64,000 nucleotides of DNA, from assembly GCA_964584755.1 (NCBI GenBank), contig CAZPAV010000009.1:358-64357 (forward strand), written 5' to 3'. Source of the DNA: an uncultured Acidimicrobiaceae bacterium (lineage in GTDB: Bacteria > Actinomycetota > Acidimicrobiia > Spongiisociales > UBA5794). Shown piece by piece: positions 25,614 through 53,660 of this stretch. Made by a program: the position numbers and the translations under genes. Below the pieces are notes generated by a model. The model saw nothing but the letters and a program-made list of their open reading frames with translations. It searched no databases and had not been told where the DNA came from. Position 1 is the first letter of the stretch; each line of letters opens with the position of its first letter.

Positions 25614-25704
25614 CCATTGGAGGACCGTCGACGGCCCCGGTCGTCGATCCACCGGGCCCGGGGAGGGACCGGTCAGGACCCCGAGGGGAGGAGGGGAGGA
25701 GCGC

Positions 25705-26481: not shown

Positions 26482-26509
26482 ACGACGACCCGAGAGGAGA
26501 GGGGAGCGC

Positions 26510-29891: not shown

Positions 29892-30040
29892 CCGACCACG
29901 GCCGGGTCCCCCGGAGGACCCGAGGAGCGAAGGACGCGGCGAGAGGGAGGACGCGATGAGCTGACCGGGGGGAACGAGGAGAGGAGCGGGCCCGGAGCGC
30001 CCGCGCGGCAGACAGGAACAGCGATCGTGAGGAGAGGGCG

Positions 30041-33058: not shown

Positions 33059-34033
33059 TCAGCGGGCCCCGGCGAGGTCGGTGAGGAGGCGGCGGACGTA
33101 GACGGGGATCATGCGCTTGCGGTACCGCGAGGTGAGGTCGGTGTTCCCCATGGGTCGCACCGCCTTGCCGGCGAGCGCTCCCGCCTCCTCCACGAGCTCC
33201 GCGGACCAGGGGTGGGCGGTGAGGAGCTCCTCGGCGGCGGTGGCCCGCACCGGGGCGGAGGCGACCGCTCCGAGGACGATCCGGGCCTCCCGACAGCGGT
33301 CCCTGGCGAAGCGCAGGGCGGCGGCGACGCCGAGGATGGGGAAGTCGATCGAGCCTCGGCGGCGGAGCTTGCGATAGCCGGCGCGACGGTCGCCGAGGGA
33401 TGGGACGACGACCTCGACGAGGATCTCCTCGGGCTCCTTGGCGAGGTGGGCCATGCCGTCGTCGCGATAGAGCTCCGCCACCGGGAGGGTCCGTGTTCCG
33501 TCGGGTCCGGCGAGCCGGACGGTCGCCTCGAGGGCGACGAGGACCGGGGCGAGATCGGAGGAGAGGACCGCCCAGCACTGCCGCTTCGCCGGCGCCACCC
33601 AGCACGTCTCGCCCCCGGCCTTCAGGCAGGGCTCCGCCGCCTGCCGCCACAGGTCGGTGACGTTGAGCCAGTGGCAGCGGGTGTCGACGCAGAGGTTCCC
33701 ACCGACCGTTCCCCGGTTGCGGAGCTGCGGGGAGGCGACGAGGGCGGCGGCCGCGGCGAGGGCCTCGGGGACGTCGGGGGAGGAGGCGACGGTCGCCAGG
33801 GTGGTGAGCGTCCCGAGACGGACCGTGCCGTCCTCCGCGGTGGTGATGCCGGCGAGCCCGGGGACCGCGGCGAGGGAGACGACGGTGCCGGCGGGGAACT
33901 GGCGGCGCTTGAGGTTGGGGTAGAGGTCGGTGCCGCCGGAGACGACGACGGCGTCGTCGTGCGCGGCGAGGAGGGCGAACACCTCGGCGAGCCCCGTCGG
34001 CCGGTGGTAGGCGAAGGCGGGGAGGCGCATCAT
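33059..34033 (-). CDS. hcrB: 4-hydroxybenzoyl-CoA reductase beta-like subunit (FAD plus [4Fe-4S] insert)
   Basis: GGTDLYPNLKR, GTVGGNLCVDTRC-x15-CLK-x5-C-x8-C four-Cys insert, SIDFP. Confidence 0.82.
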   Translation of the reverse strand: MMRLPAFAYHRPTGLAEVFALLAAHDDAVVVSGGTDLYPNLKRRQFPAGTVVSLAAVPGLAGITTAEDGTVRLGTLTTLATVASSPDVPEALAAAAALVASPQLRNRGTVGGNLCVDTRCHWLNVTDLWRQAAEPCLKAGGETCWVAPAKRQCWAVLSSDLAPVLVALEATVRLAGPDGTRTLPVAELYRDDGMAHLAKEPEEILVEVVVPSLGDRRAGYRKLRRRGSIDFPILGVAAALRFARDRCREARIVLGAVASAPVRATAAEELLTAHPWSAELVEEAGALAGKAVRPMGNTDLTSRYRKRMIPVYVRRLLTDLAGAR

Positions 34034-36423: not shown

Positions 36424-36884
36424 GCGCCGCTCCCCGCCGCCGCCGCCACGGCGCGGACGATGCTGAGGTATCCGGTGCAGCGACACATGTTCCCGGCGAG
36501 CGCCTCCCGGATCTCCGTCTCGGACGGATGGGGGACGCGGTCGAGGAGAGCCTTGGCGGTGAGGATCATCGCCGGGGTGCAGTAGCCGCACTGGGAGGCG
36601 CCGAAGGCGGCGAAGCTCTCCTGGAGCGGGTGGGGGTGGGCGATCGTGCCGAGCCCCTCGATGGTGGTGACCTCGTGGTCGGCGGCGTCGACGGCGAGGA
36701 GGAGGCAGGAGAGCTGGGGGACGCCATCGACGAGGACGGTGCAGGCGCCGCACTCCCCGAGCTCGCAGCCGTGCTTCGTGCCGGTGAGTTCGAGGTCCTC
36801 ACGGAGCACCTCGAGGAGCGTCCGGTGGGGGGGAGCGACGAGCTCGTAGCGATCTCCGTTGACCACCAACGCCAGCGGCTCCAT
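36420..36884 (-). CDS. hcrC: 4-hydroxybenzoyl-CoA reductase gamma-like subunit (2x[2Fe-2S])
   Basis: GTKHGCELGECGACTV, SCL, QCGYCTP, GNMCRCTGY; order C-A-B. Confidence 0.82.
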   Translation of the reverse strand: MEPLALVVNGDRYELVAPPHRTLLEVLREDLELTGTKHGCELGECGACTVLVDGVPQLSCLLLAVDAADHEVTTIEGLGTIAHPHPLQESFAAFGASQCGYCTPAMILTAKALLDRVPHPSETEIREALAGNMCRCTGYLSIVRAVAAAAGSGA

Positions 36885-36909
36885 CGGGCTCCCCTCCTTC
36901 CTGCGGGCG

Positions 36910-36940
36910 ATTGTAGGCACGCGTTTCGACCGCTCGGTCA
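36910..36940 (-). promoter_or_regulatory. hcrCAB promoter (-10 TACAAT) with TetR-type operator
   Basis: Minus-strand TACAAT at 36915-36910; CGACCGCTCGGTCA at 36927-36940 overlaps the -35 zone. Confidence 0.6.
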
Positions 36941-37035: not shown

Positions 37036-38139
37036 TCACGCCGGGACGTAGGCGACGCCGGCGGCGAGGCGGCGGGCGGTTCGCAGGTAGGTGGCCTCCA
37101 CGACGATGCCCGTGGCCGGGTCGATGCGGGCGGTGGCCTCCATGATGCCGCTGGGGTGTCCGATCCGGAGCCGCCCGGAACGAGCCCCGCCGACGGCCTC
37201 GGCGACGACGCTCCCCGGGAGGGCCGCGGCGACCGCGGTCGTTGCCGACACGGTGCCCGGGTACGCCTTGTGGAGGGTCGAGGGCCGGCCGCCGATCACC
37301 CGGGCGCAGAGGTCGGCGTCGGTGATCTCCTCTCCGGCGATGGTCCGGTACGGTGCCGGAGGGGCGACGGCCACGGGCACGGGGACGAGCCCGTCGCCGG
37401 CGATGCCGACGAGGCTCGCCGCGGCGGCCTTGATCGCCTCGACGGCGGCGACGTGCTCGGGGGTGATGTCGCCGGGCCCCTCGGTGCCGGTCAGGCCGGC
37501 GGCCTGGGCCGGGAAGAACACCGAGAGGTTGGCGAGGTCGACGATCGTGGCCTCGACCGGGCCCAGGTCCGTCTCGAGGACGTCCTCGGCGCGTCCCGTC
37601 GGCAGGAGCGCCCCCGTCACCCCTCCCGCCGTGTCGTGGAAGTCGAGGGCGATCGGCGCTCCGGTCCCCGGGACCCCGTCGATGGCCAGGTCGCCCCGCA
37701 CGGCGGCGCGGCCGTCTGCGACGGGCACGCGGGCGACGAGGATCCTCCCGGTGTTCGTGTTGTGGATGCGCACCGTCGTCGCCGGCTCCGTCACCGCGAC
37801 GAGAGCCTCGTCGACGGCGTAGGAGCCCACCGCCGCGGAGATGTTCCCACAGTTGATGTCGTAGTCGACCACCGGCTCGGTGATGGACACCTGCCCGAAG
37901 GTGTAGTCGAGGTCGGCGTCCTCCCGGGAGGCGGGGTCGATGATGGCGAGCTTGCTCGTGAGCAGGTCGGCCCCACCCAGCCCGTCGATCTGGCGGGGGT
38001 CGGGGCTGCCGAACAGCGCCAGGACGAGACGGTCCCGGCGGGGTCCGGGCGGGGGGAGGTCGGCGCCGCGCAGGAACACGGCCTTGCTCGTGCCCCCCCG
38101 CATGAGCACGAAGGGGATGCCGACCTGCTCGGTCGTCAA
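37036..38139 (-). CDS. PrpF/Mii family delta-isomerase
   Basis: MRGGTSKA, QIDGLGGA..LTSK, NCGNISAA, RIHNTNT, RIGHPSG, RTARRL; TTGA overlap with thiolase stop. Confidence 0.9.
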   Translation of the reverse strand: MTTEQVGIPFVLMRGGTSKAVFLRGADLPPPGPRRDRLVLALFGSPDPRQIDGLGGADLLTSKLAIIDPASREDADLDYTFGQVSITEPVVDYDINCGNISAAVGSYAVDEALVAVTEPATTVRIHNTNTGRILVARVPVADGRAAVRGDLAIDGVPGTGAPIALDFHDTAGGVTGALLPTGRAEDVLETDLGPVEATIVDLANLSVFFPAQAAGLTGTEGPGDITPEHVAAVEAIKAAAASLVGIAGDGLVPVPVAVAPPAPYRTIAGEEITDADLCARVIGGRPSTLHKAYPGTVSATTAVAAALPGSVVAEAVGGARSGRLRIGHPSGIMEATARIDPATGIVVEATYLRTARRLAAGVAYVPA

Positions 38140-39278
38140 CGGGTCAGGATCTGCACCGTGCACGCCGCTCCCTCGATCCCCGCGGCCTTGCCGCCCCGGC
38201 AGTGGGCCATCCCGACCTTGGCGTCGGGGATCTGCCGGTTGCCGGCCTCGCCGCGGAGCTGCTTGACCACCTCCACGACCTGGGCCACGCCGGTGGCGCC
38301 GAGGGGATGACCCTTGCCGAGGAGCCCCCCGCTGGGGTTCACCGGGAGGCGGCCGCCGATGTCGGCCTCGCCACGGGCGACGGCCTCGCCGTACCCGCCG
38401 CGGGGGAAGAGCCCGAGCCCCTCGACGCGCAGCGCCTCGGCGATGGTGAAGCAGTCGTGGACCTCGGTGAAGCGGATGTCCTCCGGACCCACGCCGGCTC
38501 GCTCGTACGCGTCCTGGGCGGTGTTCCAGGTGAGCGGCTCGAAGGTCATCGAGGTCGGCTCGGGGTCCACCGTCCCGCTGCGCAGGGCGGAGGCCGCCAG
38601 GCGGATGGCCCGGCCGTTGCCGTGCCGCTTGACGTACTCGCCGCTGGCGAGGATGACCGCGGCGGCCCCGTCGGAGACCGGCGAGCAGTCGAGGAGGTTG
38701 AACGGCTCCGCGATGGGCCGTGAGGAGAGGACGTCCTCGACGGTGATCTCCTTCTTGAACTGGGCGAGGGGGTTGAGGGCCGCGTTCCGCTTGTTCTTCA
38801 CCGAGATGAGCGCGAGCTGCTCGCGGGTCATCCCGAACTCCTCCATGTAGCGGCGGGCCCGCATGGCGTACACCGCGGGCATGGTGGCGCCCACCGCCGC
38901 CTCGGGGTCGTCGTCGCCGGGGGTGAAGGCCCCGCGGAACTTGCCGGTGAGGTGCTCGACGCCGACGGCGAGCGCAACGTCGAACTCGGCGGCGCGGATG
39001 CCGATGTACGCCTCACGGATGGCGGTCGCGCCGCTCGAGCAGGCGTTCTCCACGTTGGCGAGCGGGATGCCGGCGAGGCCGACCTGGGCGAGGATGCGCT
39101 GGCCCGTCACCATGGGCTGGAAGACGTGTCCGGCGTAGGCGGCCTGGATCTCGCGGGGGTCGATCTCGGCGTCGTGCATGGCGGCGCGCACCGCCTCCGA
39201 GCCGAGATCCGGTGCGTTGCGGTCGGGGTGCTTCCCGAAGGGGGTCATCCCGATCCCGATGACGTAGACGTCGGTCAT
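38136..39278 (-). CDS. bbsB: SCP2-type thiolase, benzoylsuccinyl-CoA thiolase BbsB-like
   Basis: ENACSSG, YAMRARRYM, EVHDCF, GHPLGATG, and C-terminal GGKAAGIEGAACT resembling the recalled BbsB tail. Confidence 0.72.
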   Translation of the reverse strand: MTDVYVIGIGMTPFGKHPDRNAPDLGSEAVRAAMHDAEIDPREIQAAYAGHVFQPMVTGQRILAQVGLAGIPLANVENACSSGATAIREAYIGIRAAEFDVALAVGVEHLTGKFRGAFTPGDDDPEAAVGATMPAVYAMRARRYMEEFGMTREQLALISVKNKRNAALNPLAQFKKEITVEDVLSSRPIAEPFNLLDCSPVSDGAAAVILASGEYVKRHGNGRAIRLAASALRSGTVDPEPTSMTFEPLTWNTAQDAYERAGVGPEDIRFTEVHDCFTIAEALRVEGLGLFPRGGYGEAVARGEADIGGRLPVNPSGGLLGKGHPLGATGVAQVVEVVKQLRGEAGNRQIPDAKVGMAHCRGGKAAGIEGAACTVQILTR

Positions 39279-39279
39279 G

Positions 39280-39720
39280 TCACTCCTCGTCGTCGTTCAC
39301 GGGCCGGAAGCGGTAGCCGACGAGCTGCCGTCCGGCGTCGTCCTCGCCCCAGGGCTCCAGGGAGAGCTCAACGGGCATGCCGATGTGGACGTCCTCCGGG
39401 TCGCACCCGGCGATCTGGCCCATCACCCGGAGCTTCTCGGGGAGATCGACGTACCCCAGGACGTAGGGCACCGCGAACTCCGGGGTCGACTGGCGGACGA
39501 TCGTGAAGGTGTACAGGGTGCCGCGGCGCGAGAGGGGAACGGTCTCGACGTCCTCGGTGAGACACCGGGCGCAGAGCTCGCGCTTGGGGAAGTAGTGGGC
39601 GCCGCAGGAACGGCAGCGGCTGCCGATGAGGTAGCCGGTGCCGTCGCCCTCGACGGCGAGCTCGCCGGGTCGGAAGGACACGGGGCGGGCCGCGGCGTCG
39701 ATCGTGCTGGTCTGGCTCAC
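39280..39720 (-). CDS. bbsA: Zn-ribbon/OB-fold (DUF35) thiolase partner, BbsA-like
   Basis: CRSC...CARC, VPLSRRGTLY, PYVLGYVDLPEKLRV; immediately upstream of the thiolase. Confidence 0.72.
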   Translation of the reverse strand: MSQTSTIDAAARPVSFRPGELAVEGDGTGYLIGSRCRSCGAHYFPKRELCARCLTEDVETVPLSRRGTLYTFTIVRQSTPEFAVPYVLGYVDLPEKLRVMGQIAGCDPEDVHIGMPVELSLEPWGEDDAGRQLVGYRFRPVNDDEE

Positions 39721-39809
39721 AGGGTATCGCCTCCCTCTCTCGATGCGTGGGGGAGCCGTCCGGCCGTTCGGTCGAACAGGGACATCGTCTCGCCCCCGCC
39801 CGGGCGGCG

Positions 39810-39990
39810 TCAATGAGGCAAGCGCACCATTTTACCGATGTATCGGGATCAGCGCATGGCACGATCGGAGGCGACGTCCTGCGGCACCACCGACTCCTGA
39901 TGCAATGGTACCACCGAAATGATGCCGTTCGCGGATTGACCGGACGGTGAGGGGCGACGACGCTGATAACCAACCGACCGGCCGGACGGT
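39810..39990. promoter_or_regulatory. Divergent promoter region with operator-like palindromes
   Basis: Minus-strand TAAAAT (39834-29); CCGATGTATCGG palindrome (39835-46); TGACCGGACGGTGA (39937-50). Confidence 0.5.
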
Positions 39991-40015
39991 AGAGGAGCTC
40001 ACGGGAGGTGACACC

Positions 40016-41266
40016 ATGACGGGCGAGACCGAGGCGGGCCGGGAGCGGCGCCTGCTCCACGACTGGAACGTGGTGGGCGGTGGCCCCGAGCCGGGCGTTC
40101 CCGAGGTGGAGCTCGACGACGAGACGTTGCGGGACGGCCTGCAGAGCCCGTCGGTGCGCTGTCCCAGCCTCGAGGAGAAGATCGAGATCCTCCACCGCAT
40201 GGAGGACCTCGGCATCCAGGCGGTCGACATCGGGTACGCCGGCGCCGGGGAGGCGGTCCTCGCCGACGTGGTCGGCCTCGCCGCGGAGATCGACCGCAAC
40301 GGGATGCGCATCGAGCCGAACTGCGCCGGGCGGACCCACCCCGCCGACATCGACCCCATCGCCGAGGCCCAGCAGCGCGCCGGCGTTCGCATCGAGGCGG
40401 CCCTCTTCCTCGGCTCGAGCCCCATCCGCCAGTACGCCGAGGGCTGGGACCTCGACTTCCTCCTCGAAACCACCGAGAAGGCCGTCGCCCACGCCCGGGC
40501 GCTCGACCTCGACGTCATGTACGTCACCGAGGACACGACCCGGGCCCAACCCGAGGTGCTCCGGCGTCTCTACACGACGGCCATCGAGGCGGGTGCCCGC
40601 CGCATCTGCCTCTCCGACACCGTCGGGCACGCCACCCCGTGGGGCGTGCGAAACCTCGTCCGCTTCGCCCGGGAGATCGTCGACGACACCGGCGAGCCGG
40701 TGAAGATCGACTTCCACGGTCACCGGGACCGTGGGCTCGACATCTCCAACGCGCTCGCCGCTCTCGAGGCCGGCGCCAACCGGGTCCACGGCTGCGCCCT
40801 CGGGATCGGCGAACGGGTCGGCAACGCGGCCATGGACGTCCTCCTCGTGAACCTCCGACTCCTCGGCTGGATCGACGCCGACCTCGCCGCCCTCCCCGCC
40901 TACTGCGAGGCGGTCTCCCGGGCCACCGACACCCCCATCCCCCACAACTACCCGGCGGTGGGGAAGGACGCCTTCGAGACGAGCACCGGGGTGCACGCCG
41001 CCGCGGTCCTCAAGGCCCTCCGTCGGGGCGACACGTGGCTCGCCAACCGGGTGTACAGCGGGGTTCCCGCCGACCTCCTCGGCCGCTCCCAGGTCATCAC
41101 GGTGGGTCCCATGAGCGGCCAGGCCAACGCCGAGGCCTGGCTCTTCCAACACGACATCTCCCCGGAGCCGGACCTCGTGCGGCGCATCGTCGCCGCGGCG
41201 AAGGCCTCCGACACGGTCCTCACCGAGGAGCAGATGATGGAGATCGTGGGAGGCGCCCATGCCTGA
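40016..41266 (+). CDS. DRE-TIM acyltransferase, LeuA/homocitrate-synthase-like, without regulatory domain
   Basis: DETLRDGLQ, EDTTRA, LSDTVG, HGHRDRG, GIGERVGN, GVHAAA. Confidence 0.85.
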   Translation: MTGETEAGRERRLLHDWNVVGGGPEPGVPEVELDDETLRDGLQSPSVRCPSLEEKIEILHRMEDLGIQAVDIGYAGAGEAVLADVVGLAAEIDRNGMRIEPNCAGRTHPADIDPIAEAQQRAGVRIEAALFLGSSPIRQYAEGWDLDFLLETTEKAVAHARALDLDVMYVTEDTTRAQPEVLRRLYTTAIEAGARRICLSDTVGHATPWGVRNLVRFAREIVDDTGEPVKIDFHGHRDRGLDISNALAALEAGANRVHGCALGIGERVGNAAMDVLLVNLRLLGWIDADLAALPAYCEAVSRATDTPIPHNYPAVGKDAFETSTGVHAAAVLKALRRGDTWLANRVYSGVPADLLGRSQVITVGPMSGQANAEAWLFQHDISPEPDLVRRIVAAAKASDTVLTEEQMMEIVGGAHA

Positions 41267-43070
41267 GGTCACCGAGGCGCCGACCGCCGTCACCCGGCTC
41301 CTCCTCTCCGGGAACGAAGCCATCGCCCGGGGCGCCTACGAGGCCGGGGTCCGGGTGGCCTCCGGGTACCCGGGCACGCCGAGCACCGAGATCCTCCAGA
41401 CCCTCGGCCGCGAGGAGGCGGTCGACGTCCGCTGGTCCCCCAACGAGAAGGTGGCGCTCGACGTCGCCCTCGGCGCCTCCTTCGGCGGGGCCCGCGCCCT
41501 CGCCACGATGAAGCACGTCGGCCTCAACGTGGCCGCCGACACCTTCATGACCGCGGCGTACACCGGGGTCGGGGCCGGGCTCGTGATCGTCTCCGCCGAC
41601 GACCCCGGGATGCACAGCTCCCAGAACGAGCAGGACAACCGGTACTACGCCCGCTTCGCCGGGGTGCCCCTCCTCGAGCCGTCCGACAGCGCCGAGGCGA
41701 AGGCCGCCACCAAGCTCGCCTTCGCCATCTCGGAGGAGTTCGACACCCCCGTCCTCGTGCGCACGACGACGCGGGTCTCCCACAACCGCGGCGTCGTCGC
41801 CATCGAGCCCCCCGAGGATCCCCCCGCGGGCGGCTTCCGGCGCAACCCCCAGAAGTACGTCATGCTGCCCGGGCACGCCCGCCGCCGTCACCCCGTCCTG
41901 CTCGACCGCCTCGAGCGGCTCACCCGGTACGTCGAGGAGAGCCCCCTCACCGTCGCGGTGGGCACCGACGACCGGGTCGGGGTCGTCACCGCCGGGATTC
42001 CGTACCACTACGTGCGGGAGGTGCTCCCCGACGCCCGCATCCTCAAGCTGGGGATGAGCTTCCCCCTCCCCGTGGAGCGGATCCGGGAGTTCGCCGCCTC
42101 CGTGGAGCGACTCTTCGTCGTCGAGGAGCTCGAGCCCTTCCTCGAGGACGCGATCCGGGCCGCCGGCATCGCCGTGGAGGGCAAGGCCTTCTTCCCCCGC
42201 ATCGGGGAGCTCACACCCGACATCGTCCACGACGGCTTCGCCCTCGCCGGCGTCCTCCCGCCCCGCACCGCGGTCGACCCAGGGCCGGACACGGTGGTCC
42301 GTCCGCCGCTGCTGTGTCCCGGATGTCCCCACACGGTGCCGTTCCTCGCCCTCAAGCGTCTCGAGGCCACGGTCACCGGCGACATCGGCTGCTACACGCT
42401 CGCCGCGCTCGAGCCGCTCGCCTCCATGGACACCTGTGTCGCCATGGGCGCCAGCATCGGCGCCGCCATCGGCCTCGACGCCAGTGGAGGCGTCGACGGT
42501 CCCATCGTCGCCACGATCGGAGACTCGACGTTCCTCCACGGCGGGATCCAGGGGCTCATGGACGCGGTGTACGCCGACGCCGACATCACCGTGGTCATCC
42601 TCGACAACGGGACGGTGGCGATGACCGGCGGCCAGCCCCACCCCGGGACGGGGGTGACGCTCAAGGGCGATCCGGCCCGGCCGGTCGACATCCCGGCCCT
42701 CTGCCGGGCGCTGGGGGTGGAGGACGTCCACACCGTCGATCCCTACGACGTGGCGGCGACGTTCCGGGCCCTCGAGGCGGCGATCGCCCACCCCGGTCCC
42801 TCGGTCGTCATCACGAACCGGCCCTGCGTCGAGGCGCCTCGGAAGGTGCGGGATCTCCCCTACCGGGTCGAGCTCGCCGACTGCATCGCCTGTCAGGCGT
42901 GCACGACCCTGGGATGCCCCTCCATCGTCTGGGCCGAGGAGACGTACGAGGGACGCCGCAAGGTCGTCATCGACTCGACCACCTGCACCGGCTGCACGCT
43001 CTGCGCCCAGCTCTGCGCGCCGCGGGCCATCGTCCCGGTCGAGCCCGAGGAAGGAGGAGATCGTGGCTGA
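41259..43070 (+). CDS. iorA: Indolepyruvate/arylpyruvate:ferredoxin oxidoreductase alpha
   Basis: LSGNEAIARG, YPGTPSTEI, MKHVGLNVA, SSQNEQD, LCPGCPH, GDIGCY, IGDSTF, two C-terminal 4Fe-4S motifs. Confidence 0.95.
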   Translation: MPEVTEAPTAVTRLLLSGNEAIARGAYEAGVRVASGYPGTPSTEILQTLGREEAVDVRWSPNEKVALDVALGASFGGARALATMKHVGLNVAADTFMTAAYTGVGAGLVIVSADDPGMHSSQNEQDNRYYARFAGVPLLEPSDSAEAKAATKLAFAISEEFDTPVLVRTTTRVSHNRGVVAIEPPEDPPAGGFRRNPQKYVMLPGHARRRHPVLLDRLERLTRYVEESPLTVAVGTDDRVGVVTAGIPYHYVREVLPDARILKLGMSFPLPVERIREFAASVERLFVVEELEPFLEDAIRAAGIAVEGKAFFPRIGELTPDIVHDGFALAGVLPPRTAVDPGPDTVVRPPLLCPGCPHTVPFLALKRLEATVTGDIGCYTLAALEPLASMDTCVAMGASIGAAIGLDASGGVDGPIVATIGDSTFLHGGIQGLMDAVYADADITVVILDNGTVAMTGGQPHPGTGVTLKGDPARPVDIPALCRALGVEDVHTVDPYDVAATFRALEAAIAHPGPSVVITNRPCVEAPRKVRDLPYRVELADCIACQACTTLGCPSIVWAEETYEGRRKVVIDSTTCTGCTLCAQLCAPRAIVPVEPEEGGDRG

Positions 43071-43923
43071 GGACGTGCGGGGGATCCTCCTCGCCGGCGT
43101 CGGTGGGCAGGGGGTCATCATGGCGAGCATGGTGGTCGCCGAGGCGTGCCTCCAGGCCGGCTACGACGTCAAGCAGAGCGAGGTCCACGGCATGGCCCAG
43201 CGGGGCGGATCCGTGTTCAGCCACCTGCGCTTCGGGCCCGAGGTCTCCAGCCCGCTCGTTCCCCTCGGCTCGGCCACCGTCCTGGCGGCCTTCGAGTGGG
43301 CCGAGGGGCTCCGCTGGCTCCCGTACGTCTCCCCCGAGGGGGCGGTCGTCGCCGACGTGCGACGCATCGTGCCCCCCGGCGCCTGCCGGGACCACCGCAC
43401 CTGGGTGGAGACGTACCCCGCCCGCTACGAGCAGGTCCTGCGGGAGCGAGCCGCGGCGGTGCGGCTCCTCGACGCCAGCGCCATGGCGCGTGAGCTCGGG
43501 AACGTCCGGGCGGCGAACAGCGTCGTCCTCGGTGCCGTCGCCAACTTCCTCGACCTCCCCGAGGTGTGCTGGGAGAAGGCGATCGCCCGTCGGGTCCCGC
43601 CGCACACCGTCGACGTGAACCTCGAGGCGTTCCATCTCGGCCGGGAGGCCCCCTCCCTCACGCTGCCCGAGCCGGAGCCACTCCCGCCCGTCCCCACGGG
43701 CTCGCCCCGGATCCATCTCGACCGGTCCTGGTGCAAGGACTGCGGGATCTGCCCCCGGGTCTGCCCCGAGTACTGCCTCGCCATGGACGAGCACGGGCGC
43801 CTGGCGATCGTGGCGCCGGAGGCCTGCACCGGCTGCCGGCTCTGCGAGCTGCTGTGTCCCGACTTCGCCATCACCATCGATCGGGACCCCGTCCCGGTCC
43901 CTGCCGGGAAAGGGGAGCGATGA
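43063..43923 (+). CDS. iorB: IOR beta subunit fused to a C-terminal 2x[4Fe-4S] ferredoxin (KorD-like)
   Basis: GVGGQG, SEVHGMAQRGGSV, NSVVLG, NLEAF..G; then CKDCGICPRVCP and CTGCRLCELLCP. Confidence 0.9.
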   Translation: MAEDVRGILLAGVGGQGVIMASMVVAEACLQAGYDVKQSEVHGMAQRGGSVFSHLRFGPEVSSPLVPLGSATVLAAFEWAEGLRWLPYVSPEGAVVADVRRIVPPGACRDHRTWVETYPARYEQVLRERAAAVRLLDASAMARELGNVRAANSVVLGAVANFLDLPEVCWEKAIARRVPPHTVDVNLEAFHLGREAPSLTLPEPEPLPPVPTGSPRIHLDRSWCKDCGICPRVCPEYCLAMDEHGRLAIVAPEACTGCRLCELLCPDFAITIDRDPVPVPAGKGER

Positions 43924-45068
43924 GCACACCACGGCTCGTTCAGGGCAACGAGGCCTGCGTCCTCGGGGCGCTCGCCGCCGGGTGCCGCTTCTTCGCGGGG
44001 TACCCGATCACCCCCTCGTCGGAGATCGCCGAGCTCATGTCCCGCGAGCTGCCCCGTCGCGGCGGCGCGTTCATCCAGATGGAGGACGAGATCGGATCGC
44101 TCGCCGCCGTCCTCGGCGCCTCTCTCGCCGGGACCAAGGCGATGACCGCCACCAGCGGGCCCGGCTTCTCCCTCATGCAGGAGCACATCGGGTTCGGCGC
44201 CATCGCCGAGATCCCCTGCGTGGTCGTCGACGTCATGCGCGGCGGGCCCAGCACGGGACGGCCCACCTCCCCCTCCCAGGGCGACGTCATGCAGGCCCGG
44301 TGGGGGACGCACGGCGACCACCCCGCCATCGTGCTCGCCCCCGCGACGGTGCGCGAGGTCTTCGACCTGACGGTGCGCGCCTTCGACCTCGCCGAGCGGT
44401 TCCGGATGCCGATCATCCTCCTCTACGACGAGATCCTCGGCCACACCCGGGAGGGGGTGACCCTCCCGAGCGAGGTCGAGACCGTCGAGCGGGTCCGGCC
44501 CACGGTGCCTCCCGAGGAGTTCTGGCCGAAGGCGGCGCCACCCGACGGCGTCCCGCCCCTGCCCGCCTTCGGCGACGGGTACCGCTTCCACGTCACGGGC
44601 CTCACCCACGACGAGCGGGGCTTCCCGACGAACGACGCCGCCGAGGCGGGCGCGCTCATGGAGCGGCTCCGGCGCAAGGTCGAGGACCACCTCGACGAGG
44701 TCCGCGACGTCGAGACCTTCCACACCGAGGACGCCGACGTGGTGGTCTTCGCCTACGGCACGGTGGGCCGGGCGGCACGGGAGGCGGTGGTGCGAGCCCG
44801 GGCCCGCGGCGTGCGGGCCGGGCTGCTGCGGCCCCGCACCCTCTGGCCCTTCCCCGAGGAGGAGGTGGCCGCGCTCGCGGCGCGGACCGGCGCCATCCTC
44901 GTGGCGGAGATGAACCAGGGTCAGCTCCTCCGCGAGGTGGAACGGGCGGCGGGCGGTCGGTGCGAGATCGCCACCCACCTGCGCGCCGACGGGGAGGCCA
45001 TCGTGCCCGCCGAGCTGCTCGAGGTGCTGTCGGCGCGGATCCCGGTCTCGGGAGGAGGTGGCGCATGA
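43920..45068 (+). CDS. korA: 2-oxoacid:ferredoxin oxidoreductase alpha (KorA-like)
   Basis: QGNEAC, FAGYPITPSSEIAE, QMEDEIGS, TATSGPGFSLMQE, RGGPSTG, EMNQGQ. Confidence 0.93.
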   Translation: MSTPRLVQGNEACVLGALAAGCRFFAGYPITPSSEIAELMSRELPRRGGAFIQMEDEIGSLAAVLGASLAGTKAMTATSGPGFSLMQEHIGFGAIAEIPCVVVDVMRGGPSTGRPTSPSQGDVMQARWGTHGDHPAIVLAPATVREVFDLTVRAFDLAERFRMPIILLYDEILGHTREGVTLPSEVETVERVRPTVPPEEFWPKAAPPDGVPPLPAFGDGYRFHVTGLTHDERGFPTNDAAEAGALMERLRRKVEDHLDEVRDVETFHTEDADVVVFAYGTVGRAAREAVVRARARGVRAGLLRPRTLWPFPEEEVAALAARTGAILVAEMNQGQLLREVERAAGGRCEIATHLRADGEAIVPAELLEVLSARIPVSGGGGA

Positions 45069-45886
45069 TCGACGTTCGAACCTACCTGCGCGAGTGGGCG
45101 ATGCCTCACGTCCTCTGTCCCGGGTGCGCCCACGGCATCGTCCTCCACGGGCTCCTCGAGGCCATCGACCGACGCGGGCTCGACCGCGACGAGGTGGCGA
45201 TGGTCGCCGGGATCGGGTGCAGCAGCCGGCTCGTCGGCTACGTCGACTTCTGCACGCTGCACACCACCCACGGGCGGGCTCCCGCGTTCGCCACCGGCCT
45301 GAAGCTCGCCCGTCCCGAGCTCACCGTCATCGTCATCTCCGGGGACGGGGACGGGCTCGCCATCGGGGGCAACCACCTCATCCACGCCGCGCGCCGCAAC
45401 GTGGACATCACGGTCCTCCTCTTCAACAACGCCATCTACGGGATGACCGGAGGGCAGGTGGCGCCGACGACCCCCCGCGGCGCCATCGCCACCACGGCCC
45501 GCGCCGGCAACACCGAGCCACCCTTCGACCCCTGCCGGCTCCTCGTGGGTGCCGGTGCCTCCTTCGTGGCTCGCGCCATGGCCGCCGAGCCCCTGAAGAT
45601 GGCCGACATCGTGGAGCAGGCCCTCGCCCACCGTGGGTTCTCCTTCATCGAGGTCGTCAGCGACTGCCCCGAGTACTTCGGTCGCTACAACAAGCTGGGT
45701 CGCGGCGCGGAGCTCCTCTCCCTCATGACCCGGCGCGACGAGCGGATCGCCGGACCGCTCGCCGCCAAGGCGTCGGTGCCGCACGTGCCGGCGCCCGAGC
45801 TCCTCGACGGCCTCGAGCTGGGGATCCTCCATCGGGAGGAACGGCCGGTCTTCACCGGGCGAGGGGCGGGAGGAGGCGGACGATGA
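45065..45886 (+). CDS. korB: 2-oxoacid:ferredoxin oxidoreductase beta (KorB-like)
   Basis: CPGCAHG, GIGCSSR, HGRAPAFATG, GDGDGLAIGGNH, NNAIYGMTGGQ. Confidence 0.93.
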   Translation: MIDVRTYLREWAMPHVLCPGCAHGIVLHGLLEAIDRRGLDRDEVAMVAGIGCSSRLVGYVDFCTLHTTHGRAPAFATGLKLARPELTVIVISGDGDGLAIGGNHLIHAARRNVDITVLLFNNAIYGMTGGQVAPTTPRGAIATTARAGNTEPPFDPCRLLVGAGASFVARAMAAEPLKMADIVEQALAHRGFSFIEVVSDCPEYFGRYNKLGRGAELLSLMTRRDERIAGPLAAKASVPHVPAPELLDGLELGILHREERPVFTGRGAGGGGR

Positions 45887-46425
45887 GCCGCCGCCTCGAC
45901 CTGCGTCTCGCCGGGGCCGGCGGCCAGGGCGTCGCCCTCGCCGGCCGCATCCTCGCCGAGGCGGCGTTGCGCTCAGGGCGCGAGGCCGCCTACTCGCAGG
46001 CGTACGGGCCCGCCTCCCGGGGCGGGGCCAGCCACGCCGACGTCGTGATCGCCGCAGGCGAGATCGGCTGGCCCCTCGCCGAGTCCATCGGCGTGCTCGT
46101 CGCGGTTTCGGGGGCGGCGTACGCGAAGTACGCTCCCGGGGTGGAAGCCGGGACGACGGTCGTCGCCGACACCGAGGCGATCGACCCCGAGACCCCCACC
46201 GCGGGGACCCTCCGCTCCTTCCCGATCGTGGCCACGGCCCGGCGGATCGGCGGGGGGCCGATCCTCAGCGGCGTGGTCGCCCTCGGGGTCCTCCAGGGCC
46301 TCGTCGGCCTCGTCGACGAGGCCGCCCTCGAGGAGGCGCTCGCCTCTCGGGTCCCGTCCGACCGGCGCGAGATGAACCTGCGCGCCCTGGCCGAGGGGCG
46401 CCTGCTGGCGAACGGAGGTCGATGA
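45883..46425 (+). CDS. korC: 2-oxoacid:ferredoxin oxidoreductase gamma (KorC-like)
   Basis: AGAGGQGV, SQAYGPASRGG, MNLRALAEG. Confidence 0.88.
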   Translation: MSRRLDLRLAGAGGQGVALAGRILAEAALRSGREAAYSQAYGPASRGGASHADVVIAAGEIGWPLAESIGVLVAVSGAAYAKYAPGVEAGTTVVADTEAIDPETPTAGTLRSFPIVATARRIGGGPILSGVVALGVLQGLVGLVDEAALEEALASRVPSDRREMNLRALAEGRLLANGGR

Positions 46426-47036
46426 TGACCGTCGAGGCGACCGAGGCCACCGCGGACGTCGGGACGGGCGAGCGCATCCGGCGTGCCGCCGCCGCGCTCT
46501 TCCGGGAGAAGGGCTTCAACGGGACGAGCATGGCCGACCTCGCCGCCGCGGTCGGCATCACGAAGTCGAGCCTGTACCACCACTTCTCCTCGAAGCAGGC
46601 GCTGCTCCTCGAGATCCTCGAGCTCACCGTCGACCGGGTGACCCCGGCGTTGCGGGCCGTAGCCGAATCGGAACGACCCGCCACCGAGCGGCTCCGCCGG
46701 GCGGTCGTCATGCACGTCGTCGAAGGGCTCCGCGACCGGGACAACCTCGCCTGCTTCGTCGAGGAGGGCCGGTACCTCGAACCGGCGTACATGGAGGCGT
46801 ACGTCGCCAAGCGCGACCGCTACGAGCACTACGTGCGCCGCATCATCCGCGACGGCATCGCCTCGGGCGAGTTCCGTCCCGTCGATCCCCGCCTCACCGC
46901 GATGGCCATTCTCGGCATGGCGAACTCGGCGGTTCGCTGGTACCGGCCGGAGGGCGACTACACGCCGGAGGAGATCGGGGCGTCGTTCGCCGAGCTCGTC
47001 GTCGACGGGCTCCTCGCCGGAGGCGCCCCCACATGA
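46422..47036 (+). CDS. TetR/AcrR family transcriptional regulator
   Basis: [33 protein letters not shown]; C-terminal WYRP. Confidence 0.93.
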
Positions 47037-48256
47037 GCGGCGCGCTGGCGGGCATCCGGATCCTGGATCTCTCCCAGGGCGCGGCCGGGCCCATCGCCAC
47101 CATGTTCCTCGGCGACCTCGGTGCCGAGGTCGTCAAGGTGGAACCACCGGGAGGGGAGTGGGGCCGGGGACTCGGTCCGCCCTTCCTCGGGGGGACCGCG
47201 GCGGCCTTCGTGGGGATGAACCGCAACAAGCGGGGCATCGTCGTCGACCTGAAGCGCCCCGGTGGCAGCGAGGTGGTGGCCCGCCTCGCCGAGGGGTGCG
47301 ACGCCATGCTGGAGAGCTTCCGTCCCGGCGTCGCCGACCGGCTCGGCGTCGGGTACGCCGCGCTCTCCCCGCGCAACCCTCGCCTCGTCTACGCGACGAT
47401 CTCGGCCTTCGGTCAGGAGGGCCCGTGGCGGAACCGCCCCGGGGTCGACGGCATCGTGCAGGCGGTCGGGGGGATCATGAGCGTCACCGGGACCGAGGAC
47501 GGGACCCCCGTCAAGGTGGGGGTGCCCGCCGCCGACATGGTCGCCGGGATCTTCGCCTCCCAGGCGATCGTCGCCGCCCTCTACGCCCGGGAGCGGACCG
47601 GCGCCGGCCAGCGCGTCGACCTCTCCCTCCTCGAGTCGCTCCTCGCCTTCCAGGTCGTGCCCCTCTCCATGTACCTCGCCTCGGGACGGCCGCCTCGTCG
47701 CATGGGGAGCGCCGCGCCGTACTCGGCGCCCAACGAGGCCTTCCGCACCGCCGACGGGTGGATCCAGGTCGCCGCCTACACGCCCCGTCGCTGGCCGGCC
47801 CTGTGCGCCGTCCTGGGGCGTCCCGAGCTCGCCACCGATCCCCGCTTCGACACGAACGCCGGGCGCGTCGAGCGACGGGGGGAGCTCCACGCCGAGCTGG
47901 AGGCGGCGTTCGCGACCCGCACGACGAAGGAGTGGCTCGCCGAGCTCGAGGCGGTCGACGTCCTCTGCGGGCCGATCCTCTCCTACCCGGAGCTCCTCGC
48001 CGAGGACCACCTCGCCCGGATCGACGCCCTCCCGACCTTCACCCAGCCCGGCGTGGGGGAGCTGCGGGCGGTGCGGAACCCGGCCCGCTTCTCCGATACC
48101 GGGGCGGTGCACCGGCGGCCCGCGCCGTTGCGTCCCGGGGAGGACACCCGCGAGGTGCTCGCCGCCGCCGGGTTCGCCGCCGACGAGATCGCCGAGCTCG
48201 TGGCCCGGGGCGTCGTCTCCGCGCCCGAGGAACCGAACGGAAAGGAGGAGCCGTGA
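47033..48256 (+). CDS. Family III CoA-transferase (CaiB/BaiF)
   Basis: [39 protein letters not shown] with catalytic Asp, APNEAFRT. Confidence 0.93.
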
Positions 48257-49068
48257 CGACCGCCGGCACCAGCTCGAACGCCCCCGAGGCGCCGGTCCTG
48301 TGGGAACGGGACGGCGCGGTGGGGATCATCACCCTCAATCGTCCGCAGGCGCTCAACGCCCTCACCGTCGAGATGCTCGAGACGATGGAGCGGATCGTCG
48401 CCGACGCGGAGGGGGACCCCGACCTGCGGGTGCTCGTGCTCACCGCCTCGGGCGAGAAGGCGTTCTGCGTCGGCGCCGACCTCAAGGCCCGCGCCGCCGA
48501 GTACGAGGCGGGTACGGTGCACGACCCGCTCGGGGACCTCATCCGCCGGGTCCAGCGACGGTTCGAGACGAGCGACAAGCCGATCATCGCCGCCCTCTTC
48601 GGCTACGTCCTCGGCGGGGGCCTCGAGATGGCCCTCGCCTGTGACCTGCGAGTGGCCACCGAGGGGGCCCAGCTCGGCTTCCCGGAGGCGCGGGTGGGGA
48701 GCATGCCGGGGGTGGGGGGCACTCAGCGGACGACGCGACTCGTCGGCGCGTCCCGGGCGAAGGAGCTCATGTTCACCGGGGAGCGGATCCGCGCCGAGCA
48801 GGCCCTGCAGTGGGGGCTCGTCAACCGGGTCGTGCCCGAGGGCACGCTCATGGAGGCGACCCGGGAGCTCGCCGGGAAGGTCGCGGCGAACGCGCCGCTG
48901 TCGCTGGGGCGCATCAAGGCGGCGGTGAACCGGGCGGCGGACGTCGATCTCGACACCGGGCTCGCGTTCGAGGCGATGTGTCACGCCGTGCTCAGGCACA
49001 GCGAGGACCGCAAGGAGGGTATCCAGGCCTTCGTGGACAAGCGGAAGCCCGTGTTCAAGGGTCGTTGA
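48253..49068 (+). CDS. Enoyl-CoA hydratase (two catalytic Glu)
   Basis: [40 protein letters not shown]. Confidence 0.92.
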
Positions 49069-49081
49069 GGAGGTCGAGAAG

Positions 49082-49816
49082 GTGAACGTCAGCAATCGGG
49101 TCGCGATCGTGACCGGGGCCGGCCAGGGGATCGGCGAGGGGATCGCGCGCGCCTTCGCGGCGCGCGGGGCGAAGGTCGTCGTCAACGACGTGGTCGCCGA
49201 CCGTGCCGCGGCGGTGGCCGAGGACCTCGGGGGGAACGGGGTGGCGATCCCCGCCGACATCTCGGTGGCGGAGGGGGCGAACGAGCTCGTGGCGAAGGCC
49301 ACCGAGGCCTTCGGCCAGGTGGACGTGCTCGTGAACAACGCCGGGATCTCCCGCCCCGGGTACGTGGCGAAGATGAGCGACGAGGACTGGGAGAGCGTCC
49401 TCAAGGTGAACCTCACCGCCCAGTTCCTCACCTGCCGGGCCGTCATCCCCCAGATGATGGAGCGGAAGTGGGGCCGGATCGTCAACATCTCCTCCCGGGC
49501 GTGGCTCGGGGGGGCGGGACAGGCGAACTACTCGGCGTCGAAGGGCGGCGTCGTCAGCCTCACCCGCAGCCTCGCGCTCGAGCTCGCCCGCTTCGGGATC
49601 ACGGTGAACGCCGTCGCCCCCGCGCTCGTCGACACCCCGCTCTTCCAGGGCCTCAAGGACGAGATCAAGGAGAAGCTGGTGAAGACGATCCCGATGCGCC
49701 GGGTGGGGACGCCAGACGACATCGCCAACGCGGTGCTCTTCTTCGCGGCCGAGGAGTCGGCGTACGTCACCGGCCAGCTCCTGTACGTCTGCGGCGGCCG
49801 TAGCCTCGGGGCGTGA
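49082..49816 (+). CDS. SDR, resembling BbsD (2-[hydroxy(phenyl)methyl]succinyl-CoA dehydrogenase)
   Basis: NRVAIVTG, GRIVNISSRAWLGGAGQANYS, PDDIAN, VTGQLLYVCGGRSL. Confidence 0.85.
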   Translation: MNVSNRVAIVTGAGQGIGEGIARAFAARGAKVVVNDVVADRAAAVAEDLGGNGVAIPADISVAEGANELVAKATEAFGQVDVLVNNAGISRPGYVAKMSDEDWESVLKVNLTAQFLTCRAVIPQMMERKWGRIVNISSRAWLGGAGQANYSASKGGVVSLTRSLALELARFGITVNAVAPALVDTPLFQGLKDEIKEKLVKTIPMRRVGTPDDIANAVLFFAAEESAYVTGQLLYVCGGRSLGA

Positions 49817-51092: not shown

Positions 51093-51579
51093 CGTCGTGC
51101 GGGGCCGGGCCTGGTGCTTCGGTGACGACATCAGCACCGACCTGCTCTCGCCGGGGGCGTACGCGGTCGATCCCGTCGAGGTCCGGAAGCTCCACGTCCT
51201 CGAGTCGGTGAACCCGTCCTTCGCCGCCGAGGTCCGACCCGGGGACGTGGTGGTGGCCGGGAGGAACTTCGGCTGTGGCTCGAGCCGGGAGACGGCGCCG
51301 GAGAACCTCGCCGCGCTCGGCGTCTCGTGCGTGGTCGCCTCGTCGCTGGCCCGCATCTTCCTGCGCAACGCCGTGGCGATCGGTCTCCCCGTGCTCATCT
51401 GCCCCGGCGTCGACGCCGCGGTCCACGACGGAGACGAGGTGGAGGTCGACCTGGGCGCGGGGACCGTCCGGGTGCTGCCCGACGGCCCGACGCTCCGAGG
51501 GGAGGGTCTCCCCGAGGCGATGCGGGAGATCCTCGCCGCCGGCGGCATCCTCGCCGTGCTCCGCTCCGGAGAGGGGTGA
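51082..51579 (+). CDS. leuD: LeuD/HacB-family hydro-lyase small subunit
   Basis: FGDDISTD, AGRNFGCGSSRE, ARIFLRNAVAIGLP. Confidence 0.92.
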   Translation: MAADVVRGRAWCFGDDISTDLLSPGAYAVDPVEVRKLHVLESVNPSFAAEVRPGDVVVAGRNFGCGSSRETAPENLAALGVSCVVASSLARIFLRNAVAIGLPVLICPGVDAAVHDGDEVEVDLGAGTVRVLPDGPTLRGEGLPEAMREILAAGGILAVLRSGEG

Positions 51580-52349: not shown

Positions 52350-52368
52350 GCGGGCCCGTCTCCCGGCC

Positions 52369-52395
52369 GTAATCCGCCCGTAACACGCCGGAAAC
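52369..52395 (+). promoter_or_regulatory. GlnR-box-like repeat upstream of amtB
   Basis: GTAAT-N6-GTAAC-N6-GAAAC, matching the actinobacterial gTnAc-N6-GaAAc pattern. Confidence 0.7.
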
Positions 52396-52439
52396 ACTCG
52401 GCGGCGACCATGGGCGCTCGTCGAGCGAGGAGGGGATCG

Positions 52440-53636: not shown

Positions 53637-53660
53637 GGTCGGCGGGAGGAGGGAGCAACG

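Follow-up and report, generated by a model that had tools for sequence, protein, structure and literature searches.

A Bbs-like thiolase cluster of uncultured Acidimicrobiia with LeuA-, LeuCD- and methylitaconate-isomerase-like genes: a proposed route from arylpyruvate to (4-hydroxy)benzoyl-CoA and succinate

In Thauera, Aromatoleum and Geobacter, the bbsABCDEFGH operons of benzylsuccinate beta-oxidation include genes for a CoA-transferase of family III, a crotonase-type hydratase, a short-chain dehydrogenase/reductase (SDR) and a thiolase whose partner has a Zn ribbon and an OB fold; together these enzymes lead to an aroyl-CoA and succinyl-CoA. The same enzyme types, which would act in the same sequence once the enoyl stage is reached, are encoded by the gene cluster described here, which lies in a stretch of 64,000 nucleotides (hereafter the window) from an uncultured Acidimicrobiaceae bacterium of the lineage UBA5794 (assembly GCA_964584755.1, contig CAZPAV010000009.1, positions 358 to 64,357). 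In contrast to the bbs operons, the cluster has no BbsG, no benzylsuccinate synthase (BSS) and no activase; it has one SDR and one CoA-transferase, the latter not of the BbsEF type, and it is linked to genes resembling leuA, leuCD and that of methylitaconate isomerase (Mii), none of which occur in bbs operons. In the nicotinate fermentation of Eubacterium barkeri, Mii and DmdAB interconvert methylitaconate, dimethylmaleate and dimethylmalate, and a PrpF-family Delta-isomerase is paired there with a LeuCD-type dehydratase, as in our cluster. That route runs from itaconate through maleate to malate and has a lyase at its end, whereas the reverse direction is proposed here, with a LeuA-type synthase feeding and a CoA-dependent beta-oxidation draining it. 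A LeuA-type synthase and a LeuCD-type dehydratase also act on a 2-oxoacid and acetyl-CoA in the pathways of 2-oxoacid elongation (LeuABCD; HphABCD for homophenylalanine; AksA/HacAB). HphA and HphCD make and isomerise benzylmalate, so that HphA is a precedent for benzylmalate formation. Elongation is biosynthetic, whereas the route proposed for the window is catabolic; the cluster contains no enzyme of the isopropylmalate-dehydrogenase type, and its maleate would be diverted by the isomerase rather than rehydrated and oxidatively decarboxylated. Finally, phenylacetyl-CoA alpha-oxidation (PadBCD, PadEFGHI; Thauera and Aromatoleum) would have the same start and end points, from the side chain of an arylpyruvate or arylacetate to benzoyl-CoA. 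Its enzymes are wholly different, and no gene of the window was assigned to the PadBCD type. Compared with the Pad route, the proposed one would keep the side-chain carbons as succinate without loss of CO2, and a single oxidation at the level of NAD would suffice.

The thiolase, its partner and the SDR had been picked out at 38136-49816 in a first-pass annotation, which described them as orphan BbsB-, BbsA- and BbsD-like genes. Genes were called in the window (G+C about 72%) by third-position GC content and assigned to families with Pfam and NCBIfam profiles. The flagged span sits within two divergent, tightly packed operons. The minus-strand operon carries, in this order, the DUF35 protein, the thiolase, a PrpF-family isomerase and three subunits of a molybdenum enzyme (36920-33059). 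The order on the plus strand is LeuA-like gene, IorA, IorB, a three-subunit 2-oxoacid:ferredoxin oxidoreductase (Kor), a TetR regulator, CoA-transferase, hydratase, SDR, LeuC-like gene and LeuD-like gene. Because neighbouring plus-strand genes (39947/40016-51579) overlap by 4-11 nt or leave gaps of 13-16 nt, they form one translationally coupled unit. The term orphan does not hold, since counterparts of each Bbs step except the dehydrogenase are encoded; a CoA-transferase gene (47033-48256) and a hydratase gene (48253-49068), inside the flagged span and directly upstream of the SDR gene, had been overlooked. The missing dehydrogenase is plausibly replaced by the LeuA-like, LeuCD-like and Mii-like enzymes of the same two operons, a replacement of which the first-pass annotation was unaware. 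We consider it roughly an even bet that the two operons would encode a complete catabolic route from an arylpyruvate to (4-hydroxy)benzoyl-CoA and succinate.

In the proposed route, the LeuA-type synthase would condense an arylpyruvate, most likely 4-hydroxyphenylpyruvate and perhaps phenylpyruvate, with acetyl-CoA to a 2-(aryl)methylmalate (benzylmalate), which the LeuCD-type dehydratase would convert to benzylmaleate and the Mii-like isomerase to benzylidenesuccinate (phenylitaconate). The family III CoA-transferase would then make the CoA thioester with succinyl-CoA as the donor, the hydratase would add water as BbsH does, the SDR would oxidise the resulting alcohol as BbsD does, and the thiolase with its Zn-finger partner would release (4-hydroxy)benzoyl-CoA and succinyl-CoA as BbsAB does. 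In general form, R-CH2-CO-COOH would be turned into R-CO-CoA and succinyl-CoA; the net reaction would be arylpyruvate + acetyl-CoA + NAD+ to aroyl-CoA + succinate + NADH. In the toluene pathway the double bond comes from BbsG, an acyl-CoA dehydrogenase. Because it would here arise by dehydration and isomerisation, and because the intermediate behind the CoA-transferase step is the BbsG product when R is phenyl or 4-hydroxyphenyl, both BbsG and BSS would be dispensable. An enzyme resembling 4-hydroxybenzoyl-CoA reductase (4-HBCR) would subsequently supply benzoyl-CoA to the class I benzoyl-CoA reductase encoded upstream. The arylpyruvate may derive from tyrosine or phenylalanine, or from arylacetyl-CoA through an indolepyruvate:ferredoxin oxidoreductase (IOR) working in reverse. 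For the latter route a PaaK-like ligase (23153-24448) is noted, and the ferredoxin might, speculatively, be reduced by the adjacent 2-oxoacid oxidoreductase; another speculative option is that both oxidoreductases just supply reduced ferredoxin to the two reductases. We infer all substrates and the direction of flux from gene content, enzyme families, catalytic residues, synteny and the absence of dehydrogenase and BSS genes from the neighbourhoods, all of which were observed directly; as chemistry, the scheme is coherent.

The thiolase (38136..39278, minus strand; Pfam Thiolase_N/Thiolase_C_1) is a BbsB-like protein of the SCP2/DUF35 type. Its top match among solved structures is Geobacter BbsB (7pxp_C, E 8e-88, 42% identity), with which the motifs NACSSG and GHPLGATG line up, and the tail quoted in the first-pass annotation is present (...GGKAAGIEGAACTVQILTR). 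At a distance of 1 nt follows the gene of the DUF35 protein (39280..39720, minus strand; Pfam zf-ChsH2 and OB_ChsH2_C), a BbsA-like protein with a Cys4 Zn ribbon and an OB fold. The thiolase is thus paired with an adjacent Zn-ribbon/OB-fold subunit, and both sites are intact. The open reading frame of the DUF35 protein can be extended to 39813, with GTG 39720 as the likely start, and the JGI gene calls give 146 aa. Its top PDB match is BbsA (7pxp_A, E 3e-22, 38% identity), in which all four Zn-ribbon cysteines are aligned; it contains VPLSRRG and YVDLPEKLRV, and VPLSRRG and YVDLPE.LRV are literally common to BbsA. The classical SDR (49082..49816, plus strand), of the (3R)-hydroxyacyl-CoA dehydrogenase/BbsD type, has the TGxxxGIG, NNAG and YxxxK motifs. 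It matches BbsD best in the PDB (7pcs_B, E 6e-72, 48.6% identity) and literally shares SRAWLGGAGQ and LYVCGGRSL with it. All motifs quoted earlier for the three proteins are therefore present where they had been placed. The thiolase is proposed to cleave a 2-acylsuccinyl-CoA into an acyl-CoA and succinyl-CoA.

The first-pass annotation had further stated that these proteins closely resemble Thauera Bbs, which is too strong a wording in view of the 42, 38 and 48.6% identity to the solved structures and of two further observations. Aerobic Cupriavidus, Variovorax and Azospirillum have SDRs with SRAWLG..GQ and LYVCGGRSL as well, and Geobacter BbsB itself shares 40-44% identity with hundreds of thiolases encoded on plasmids of aerobes. 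The NCBIfam BbsB equivalog NF053628 has a cut-off of 750 bits, of which the thiolase reaches 314, and the generic thiolase model scores higher (374 bits); the BbsA equivalog NF053627 gives 94.9 bits on the DUF35 protein against a cut-off of 250. In a neighbour-joining tree of thiolases, Geobacter BbsB forms a group with plasmid-encoded thiolases of Variovorax and Azospirillum (73% bootstrap), whereas the clade of the window is a separate deep branch joined to the BbsB group with 39% support; the tree included only one true BbsB, which limits its resolution.

The family III CoA-transferase (47033..48256, plus strand; Pfam CoA_transf_3, E 6e-128) is encoded by one gene, in contrast to the two-subunit BbsE/BbsF. 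Its best NCBIfam and PDB matches are succinyl-CoA-dependent dicarboxylate CoA-transferases (succinate-glutarate, mesaconate, SUGCT), and the benzylsuccinate CoA-transferase subunit 9fn0_B comes just 18th (E 2e-43), after enzymes of the SUGCT and formyl-CoA-transferase types (E 5e-75). We propose it as a candidate succinyl-CoA:alkylidene/benzylidene-succinate CoA-transferase. The next gene encodes a crotonase-family enoyl-CoA hydratase (48253..49068, plus strand; Pfam ECH_1, E 7e-67), which is predicted to serve the step of BbsH and matches generic crotonases in the PDB. The SDR gene is likewise single in the operon, as opposed to the pair of catalytic BbsD and pseudoenzyme BbsC.

No acyl-CoA dehydrogenase, glycyl-radical enzyme or activase was found among nearly all sizeable genes of the window with Pfam and NCBIfam. 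Tblastn with E. coli AidB, PflB and PflA gave no match in the window or in the 34 related loci (with flanks of about 10 kb) described below; the AidB query did find an acyl-CoA dehydrogenase in an unrelated archaeal locus, which serves as a positive control. The claim of the first-pass annotation that all three enzymes are missing from the window is thereby confirmed. For the source genome itself, the absence of bss and bbsG covers this one contig (about 64.8 kb).

A 2025 study of UBA5794 Acidimicrobiia genomes reads bbsA and bcrBC of marine-sediment members as anaerobic toluene degradation (PMC12008989). True catabolism of toluene, xylene or cresol, with BSS, its activase and bbsG elsewhere in the genome, would agree with that annotation, with the fact that the best solved-structure matches are BbsB, BbsA and BbsD, and with the representation of the genome by one contig. 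Nevertheless it is the least likely of the readings considered and in our view very improbable. The BbsA and BbsB equivalog scores lie far under their cut-offs, the thiolase clade is apart from BbsB, the SDR is single, and so is the CoA-transferase, which is not BbsEF-like. All 34 syntenic loci lack BSS, activase and acyl-CoA dehydrogenase nearby, and what the module is tied to instead are genes for the synthase, the dehydratase and the isomerase. The assignment as true bbs genes was rejected because of the equivalog scores, the position in the tree, the make-up of subunits and the gene neighbourhood. The label of toluene degradation is therefore probably wrong for these genes, and the evidence suggests that the bbsA/bcrBC calls of PMC12008989 reflect the present module. 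The first-pass annotation had foreseen this risk of mislabelling. Its idea that Bbs-like enzymes are reused for a non-toluene substrate is supported by the equivalog scores, the neighbour-joining tree, the subunit counts and the 34 loci, and its warning that an annotation as toluene degradation would mislead is justified, such an annotation having already been made.

The enzymes that may stand in for the dehydrogenase are encoded on both strands. The PrpF-family isomerase (37036..38163, minus strand; Pfam PrpF, E 9e-103, 344 bits) has as its top PDB match the 3-methylitaconate isomerase of E. barkeri (3g7k, E 8e-95, 49% identity), with PrpF proper at E 2e-64, and in the alignment it keeps Lys62 and Cys96, the catalytic residues of the E. 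barkeri enzyme. We propose that it moves the double bond of a substituted maleate to give an alkylidene- or benzylidenesuccinate. The LeuA-like protein (40016..41266, plus strand) is a 2-oxoacid:acetyl-CoA Claisen-condensing synthase of the LeuA/NifV type with only the Pfam HMGL-like domain and no regulatory domain. Its open reading frame opens at GTG 39947, while ATG 40016, which is preceded by GGGAGG, is the likely start. Isopropylmalate and homocitrate synthases are its best PDB matches (E 3e-33), and no named equivalog was reached, the top NCBIfam synthase equivalog scoring 186 bits against cut-offs of 413-748. The LRDGxQ, HxH and GxGERxGN motifs are kept, and R13, D14, H202, H204, E234, R235 and N238 of E. 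coli LeuA are all retained. In the pocket, by comparison with E. coli LeuA, H97 is replaced by A/S, N167 by C, P169 by S/A and S139 by V. These four positions, which we take to control substrate size, show a pattern that fits a larger substrate, without proving it. The protein is thus put forward as a putative (aryl)methylmalate synthase.

At the far end of the plus-strand operon, the LeuC-like subunit (49833-51092, plus strand) belongs to the small aconitase-family dehydratases and scores 544 bits with NF001614 (cut-off 385) and 528 bits with TIGR01343 (cut-off 386). The LeuD-like subunit (51082-51579, plus strand) reaches 166 bits with the LeuD/DmdB family TIGR02087 (cut-off 109). Both pass these subfamily thresholds but miss the LeuC and LeuD equivalogs proper, and the pair is proposed to act as a substituted-malate dehydratase. 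A second, full-length LeuA/CimA-type synthase with a LeuA_dimer domain is encoded at 56350-57963, on the strand opposite to amt-glnB-glnD, and is presumed to be the housekeeping paralogue of the truncated synthase of the cluster. That the LeuA- and LeuCD-like genes are merely neighbouring housekeeping leucine genes was rejected on account of the synteny in 34 species, the separate LeuA/CimA gene and the absence of isopropylmalate dehydrogenase (LeuB) from the cluster.

The conservation of the cluster was assessed by tblastn with all window proteins, covering one genome per species and neighbourhoods with flanks of about 10 kb. The scan returned 34 loci with a thiolase 74-80% identical to that of the window, nearly all of them labelled as metagenome-assembled genomes (MAGs) of Acidimicrobiia or Actinomycetota, from samples that include marine sediment, hydrothermal material, mats and others. 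The sequence of the window itself occurs in hydrothermal-vent and microbial-mat metagenomes. In each of the 31 loci that reach that far (31/31), the isomerase lies directly behind the thiolase. Wherever sequence is available, the LeuA-like gene is divergent to and upstream of the DUF35-thiolase pair, and the order TetR, CoA-transferase, hydratase is kept. SDR, LeuC-like and LeuD-like genes come next in all five loci with enough sequence (5/5), and one further locus (L019) shows the SDR. Seven of the 27 loci that are informative on this point lack the Ior/Kor block, which is therefore considered accessory. Of 28 informative loci, 18 have the molybdenum enzyme directly behind the isomerase; most of the remaining ones have a Zn-dependent alcohol dehydrogenase, an Oah/BadI-like crotonase and a hydratase in that place. 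Benzoyl-CoA-reductase-like genes often come next in the related loci.

Related modules were also found in other bacteria. A bbs operon was sought in a plasmid collection as a source of BbsH, BbsE, BbsF and BbsG references; none was found there, and the search turned up three modules of aerobes, namely on Cupriavidus necator N-1 pBB2 (L063, 122539-129283), in Variovorax sp. SRS16 (L064) and in V. paradoxus VAI-C (L067). All three encode an OB-fold protein, a thiolase, an SDR, a CoA-transferase and a hydratase together with a tricarboxylate-type binding protein and a Mii-like isomerase; an acyl-CoA dehydrogenase is again missing. Five enzyme types are thus shared with the window at 41-52% identity (thiolase 43-44%, SDR 52%, CoA-transferase 47-48%, hydratase 41-46%, isomerase 48-51%), as is the position of the OB-fold gene beside the thiolase. 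The modules differ in their aerobic hosts, in a binding protein of the tripartite tricarboxylate type in place of LeuA/LeuCD, and in the absence of aromatic-CoA genes nearby; their OB-fold proteins have no Cys4 Zn ribbon. On a Yersinia ruckeri plasmid, LeuC and LeuD genes adjoin a Mii-like gene (47%, 39% and 46% identical to those of the window), an arrangement that mirrors DmdAB and Mii of nicotinate fermentation. Among plasmid proteins, the closest homologue of the LeuA-like protein (43.6% identity) comes from Streptomyces sp. KN37 (L065, 397500-406172), where it lies in a nonribosomal peptide synthetase/polyketide synthase cluster beside a fused aconitase, an isopropylmalate-type dehydrogenase, an acyl-CoA dehydrogenase and two crotonyl-CoA carboxylase/reductases; the cassette resembles a pathway that elongates a 2-oxoacid to make an unusual extender unit. 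Because its parts recur in the aerobe, Yersinia and Streptomyces loci, the Acidimicrobiia cluster can be viewed as the union of three recurring sub-modules. In V. paradoxus VAI-C, a second BbsAB-like pair (L061, 1156474-1166275) lies beside a three-subunit enzyme of the xanthine-dehydrogenase family and further adjoins a CoA-transferase, a GMC oxidoreductase and a hydratase, which is a different pairing of a DUF35-thiolase with a molybdenum hydroxylase.

The aerobe modules bear on the question of where substrates enter. With a solute-binding protein and no LeuA/LeuCD, they suggest that dicarboxylates are taken up and enter at the isomerase, and toluene degraders are known to excrete phenylitaconate as a by-product. 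The window cluster might likewise scavenge external substituted itaconates, maleates or malates (phenylitaconate, by-products of the benzylsuccinate type, alkylitaconates), with the LeuA-like protein not being the entry point. We judge this distinctly improbable for the Acidimicrobiia, whose clusters have no transporter and always include the LeuA-like synthase, together with LeuCD wherever the sequence reaches. Moreover, condensation of the LeuA type is practically irreversible, which favours synthesis of the malate inside the cell.

The same modules weigh on a second alternative, in which the genes would serve the beta-oxidation of the lower benzoyl-CoA pathway, from 3-hydroxypimelyl-CoA to glutaryl-CoA and acetyl-CoA, with the CoA-transferase acting on glutarate or succinate and the LeuA, LeuCD and Mii types unrelated to it. 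The genes do sit between benzoyl-CoA pathway genes, succinate-glutarate CoA-transferase is the best NCBIfam match of the CoA-transferase, and the SDR scores 199 bits with BadH. This scheme, however, would leave unexplained both the isomerase behind the thiolase in 31/31 loci and the recurrence of isomerase, CoA-transferase, hydratase, SDR and thiolase in aerobes without benzoyl-CoA genes nearby. DUF35-partnered thiolases typically act on branched or bulky 2-substituted substrates, and no glutaryl-CoA dehydrogenase is present. It therefore appears quite improbable to us.

The preference for an arylpyruvate over a non-aromatic substrate comes in part from IOR. IorA (41259..43070, plus strand; Pfam POR_N, TPP_enzyme_C, Fer4), the alpha subunit of an indolepyruvate (arylpyruvate):ferredoxin oxidoreductase, exceeds the cut-off of the IOR_alpha equivalog TIGR03336 (683 bits against 651), and the first 8 nt of its gene overlap the end of the LeuA-like gene. 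IorB (43063..43923, plus strand; Pfam POR and Fer4) joins an IOR beta subunit and a 2x[4Fe-4S] domain in one protein and scores 216 bits with the NCBIfam IOR beta models. Kor follows at 43920..46425 on the plus strand, with alpha at 43920-45068, beta at 45065-45886 and gamma at 45883-46425 (Pfam POR_N/PFOR_II, TPP_enzyme_C, POR); its alpha subunit passes NF006412, the 2-oxoacid:acceptor oxidoreductase alpha model (555 bits, cut-off 411), and reaches only 80 bits with the PadG model.

The molybdenum enzyme belongs to the xanthine-oxidase family and is encoded on the minus strand by three genes. Its molybdopterin-binding large (alpha) subunit (34030..36423; Pfam MoCoBD_1/2, Ald_Xan_dh_C) resembles 4-HBCR alpha and scores 863 bits with TIGR03194 (cut-off 995), the next family, XdhA, reaching 535 bits. 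The FAD-binding medium (beta) subunit (33059..34033) resembles 4-HBCR beta, with 277 bits for TIGR03195 against a cut-off of 405. It aligns over its full length with Thauera 1rm6_B (E 2e-55) and contains the extra Cys-rich loop, all five cysteines of the NLC..TRC..C..C..C insertion being kept. The 2x[2Fe-2S] small (gamma) subunit (36420..36920; Pfam Fer2_2/Fer2) is also 4-HBCR-like, at 168 bits with TIGR03193 against a cut-off of 258; the model of the glyceraldehyde dehydrogenase gamma subunit scores marginally higher (175 bits). Hence alpha and beta score best with 4-HBCR models, and all three subunits stay under the 4-HBCR cut-offs.

An aromatic R is favoured because of the 4-HBCR-like alpha and beta subunits with the Cys loop, the IorA equivalog coupled to the LeuA-like gene, and the benzoyl-CoA pathway island. 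The same chemistry might nevertheless act on a non-aromatic 2-oxoacid, aliphatic or dicarboxylic, and yield R-CO-CoA and succinate, the aromatic neighbours being incidental. The substrate is not fixed at the residue level, the CoA-transferase and the hydratase look generic, the LeuC-like subunit scores best with homoaconitase-type families, and the Cupriavidus and Variovorax modules adjoin tricarboxylate-type binding proteins, not aromatic genes. We regard this as possible but rather unlikely, given that the module lies amid benzoyl-CoA genes in many species, with the 4-HBCR-like enzyme next to it in 18/28, that the LeuA-like gene is translationally coupled to that of an equivalog-level arylpyruvate:ferredoxin oxidoreductase, and that the best structural relatives of three of the enzymes use benzoyl-bearing substrates.

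Several points weigh against the arylpyruvate route as proposed. The similarity to BbsB, BbsA and BbsD is at the family level only, and the CoA-transferase resembles generic dicarboxylate enzymes, the hydratase generic short-chain ones. The sequences do not fix the 2-oxoacid, nor can the pocket changes of the LeuA-like protein be read as specific for an aryl group. Where Ior/Kor is inserted, the 10-kb flank stops before SDR-LeuCD, so that the full gene set is seen only in the window and five other loci, with L019 showing the SDR alone. The molybdenum enzyme is not beside the module in 10/28 loci, and it could instead serve the phenol/4-hydroxybenzoate genes of the same window. No aminotransferase was seen in the cluster, and an IOR running oxidatively would draw on the same substrate as the LeuA-like synthase. 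The sole metatranscriptome from a matching sample contains none of the window's sequence.

With regard to regulation, the TetR-family regulator (46422..47036, plus strand; Pfam TetR_N and TetR_C_24) keeps its place in the related loci. Between the two divergent operons (39720-40016), the search for a palindromic operator gave just two short, GC-rich and uninformative palindromes. A PAS-LuxR regulator gene lies directly 3' of the LeuD-like gene, followed by amt-glnB-glnD (51678-56344).

The window contains further genes of aromatic metabolism. A class I benzoyl-CoA-reductase-like set (15456-22998, minus strand) includes BcrC-like (294 bits) and BcrB-like (185 bits) proteins, both below the cut-offs, two ATPase genes of the BadF/BcrA/BcrD type, an Oah/BadI/MenB-like crotonase (17831-18796), a two-subunit family I CoA-transferase (16211-17826) and an SDR (15456-16199). 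Assignment of the HgdAB-like genes of this upstream region to a phenyllactate-type dehydratase was rejected, as the BcrC and BcrB models beat HadC and HadB and two ATPase genes are present. A set resembling those for phenol/4-hydroxybenzoate activation (23153-31861) comprises the PaaK-like CoA ligase (23153-24448), UbiX (24989-25552), an IclR regulator (25726-26481) and a UbiD decarboxylase (26450-27946) that matches phenylphosphate carboxylase beta best (425 bits, cut-off 469); its PPDK_N (28638-29891) and PEP-utilizers (30041-31861) proteins resemble phenylphosphate synthase subunits. In the related loci, no genes of this second set were found in the surroundings of the module. At 13397-14794 (plus strand), beside a TetR regulator, a pyridoxal-dependent decarboxylase of the aromatic-amino-acid decarboxylase family is encoded (Pfam E 1e-101), which is another possible tie to aromatic amino acid metabolism.

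The conserved module is apparently undescribed. In full-text literature searches, no paper was found that connects the formation of benzoyl-CoA with benzylmalate, benzylmaleate, phenylitaconate or methylitaconate isomerase, nor was a module of PrpF and DUF35-thiolase found described. For annotation, its recognition would correct the recurring KEGG-style bbsA/bbsB calls in marine Acidimicrobiia that are taken as toluene degradation. For biochemistry, the proposed route suggests, in a testable way, how strict anaerobes that lack an enzyme for phenylacetyl-CoA alpha-oxidation may shorten side chains of the aryl-C3 and aryl-C2 type to benzoyl-CoA. In evolutionary terms, a module of hydrocarbon degradation would be fed through a 2-oxoacid-elongation front end, with an isomerase replacing the dehydrogenase. 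The modules of Cupriavidus necator N-1 and Variovorax provide genetically tractable systems for this isomerase-for-dehydrogenase logic. Tentatively, and a little short of an even bet, we suggest that Acidimicrobiia of sediments and hydrothermal sites have an anaerobic route for aromatic amino acids and arylacetates that would require no radical enzyme, acyl-CoA dehydrogenase or high-potential acceptor, and that a sister module in Cupriavidus and Variovorax would apply the same trick to imported substituted dicarboxylates. The cluster occurs in MAGs of at least 34 species, from sediments, vents and mats, and may therefore be relevant to the turnover of aromatic carbon in these habitats.

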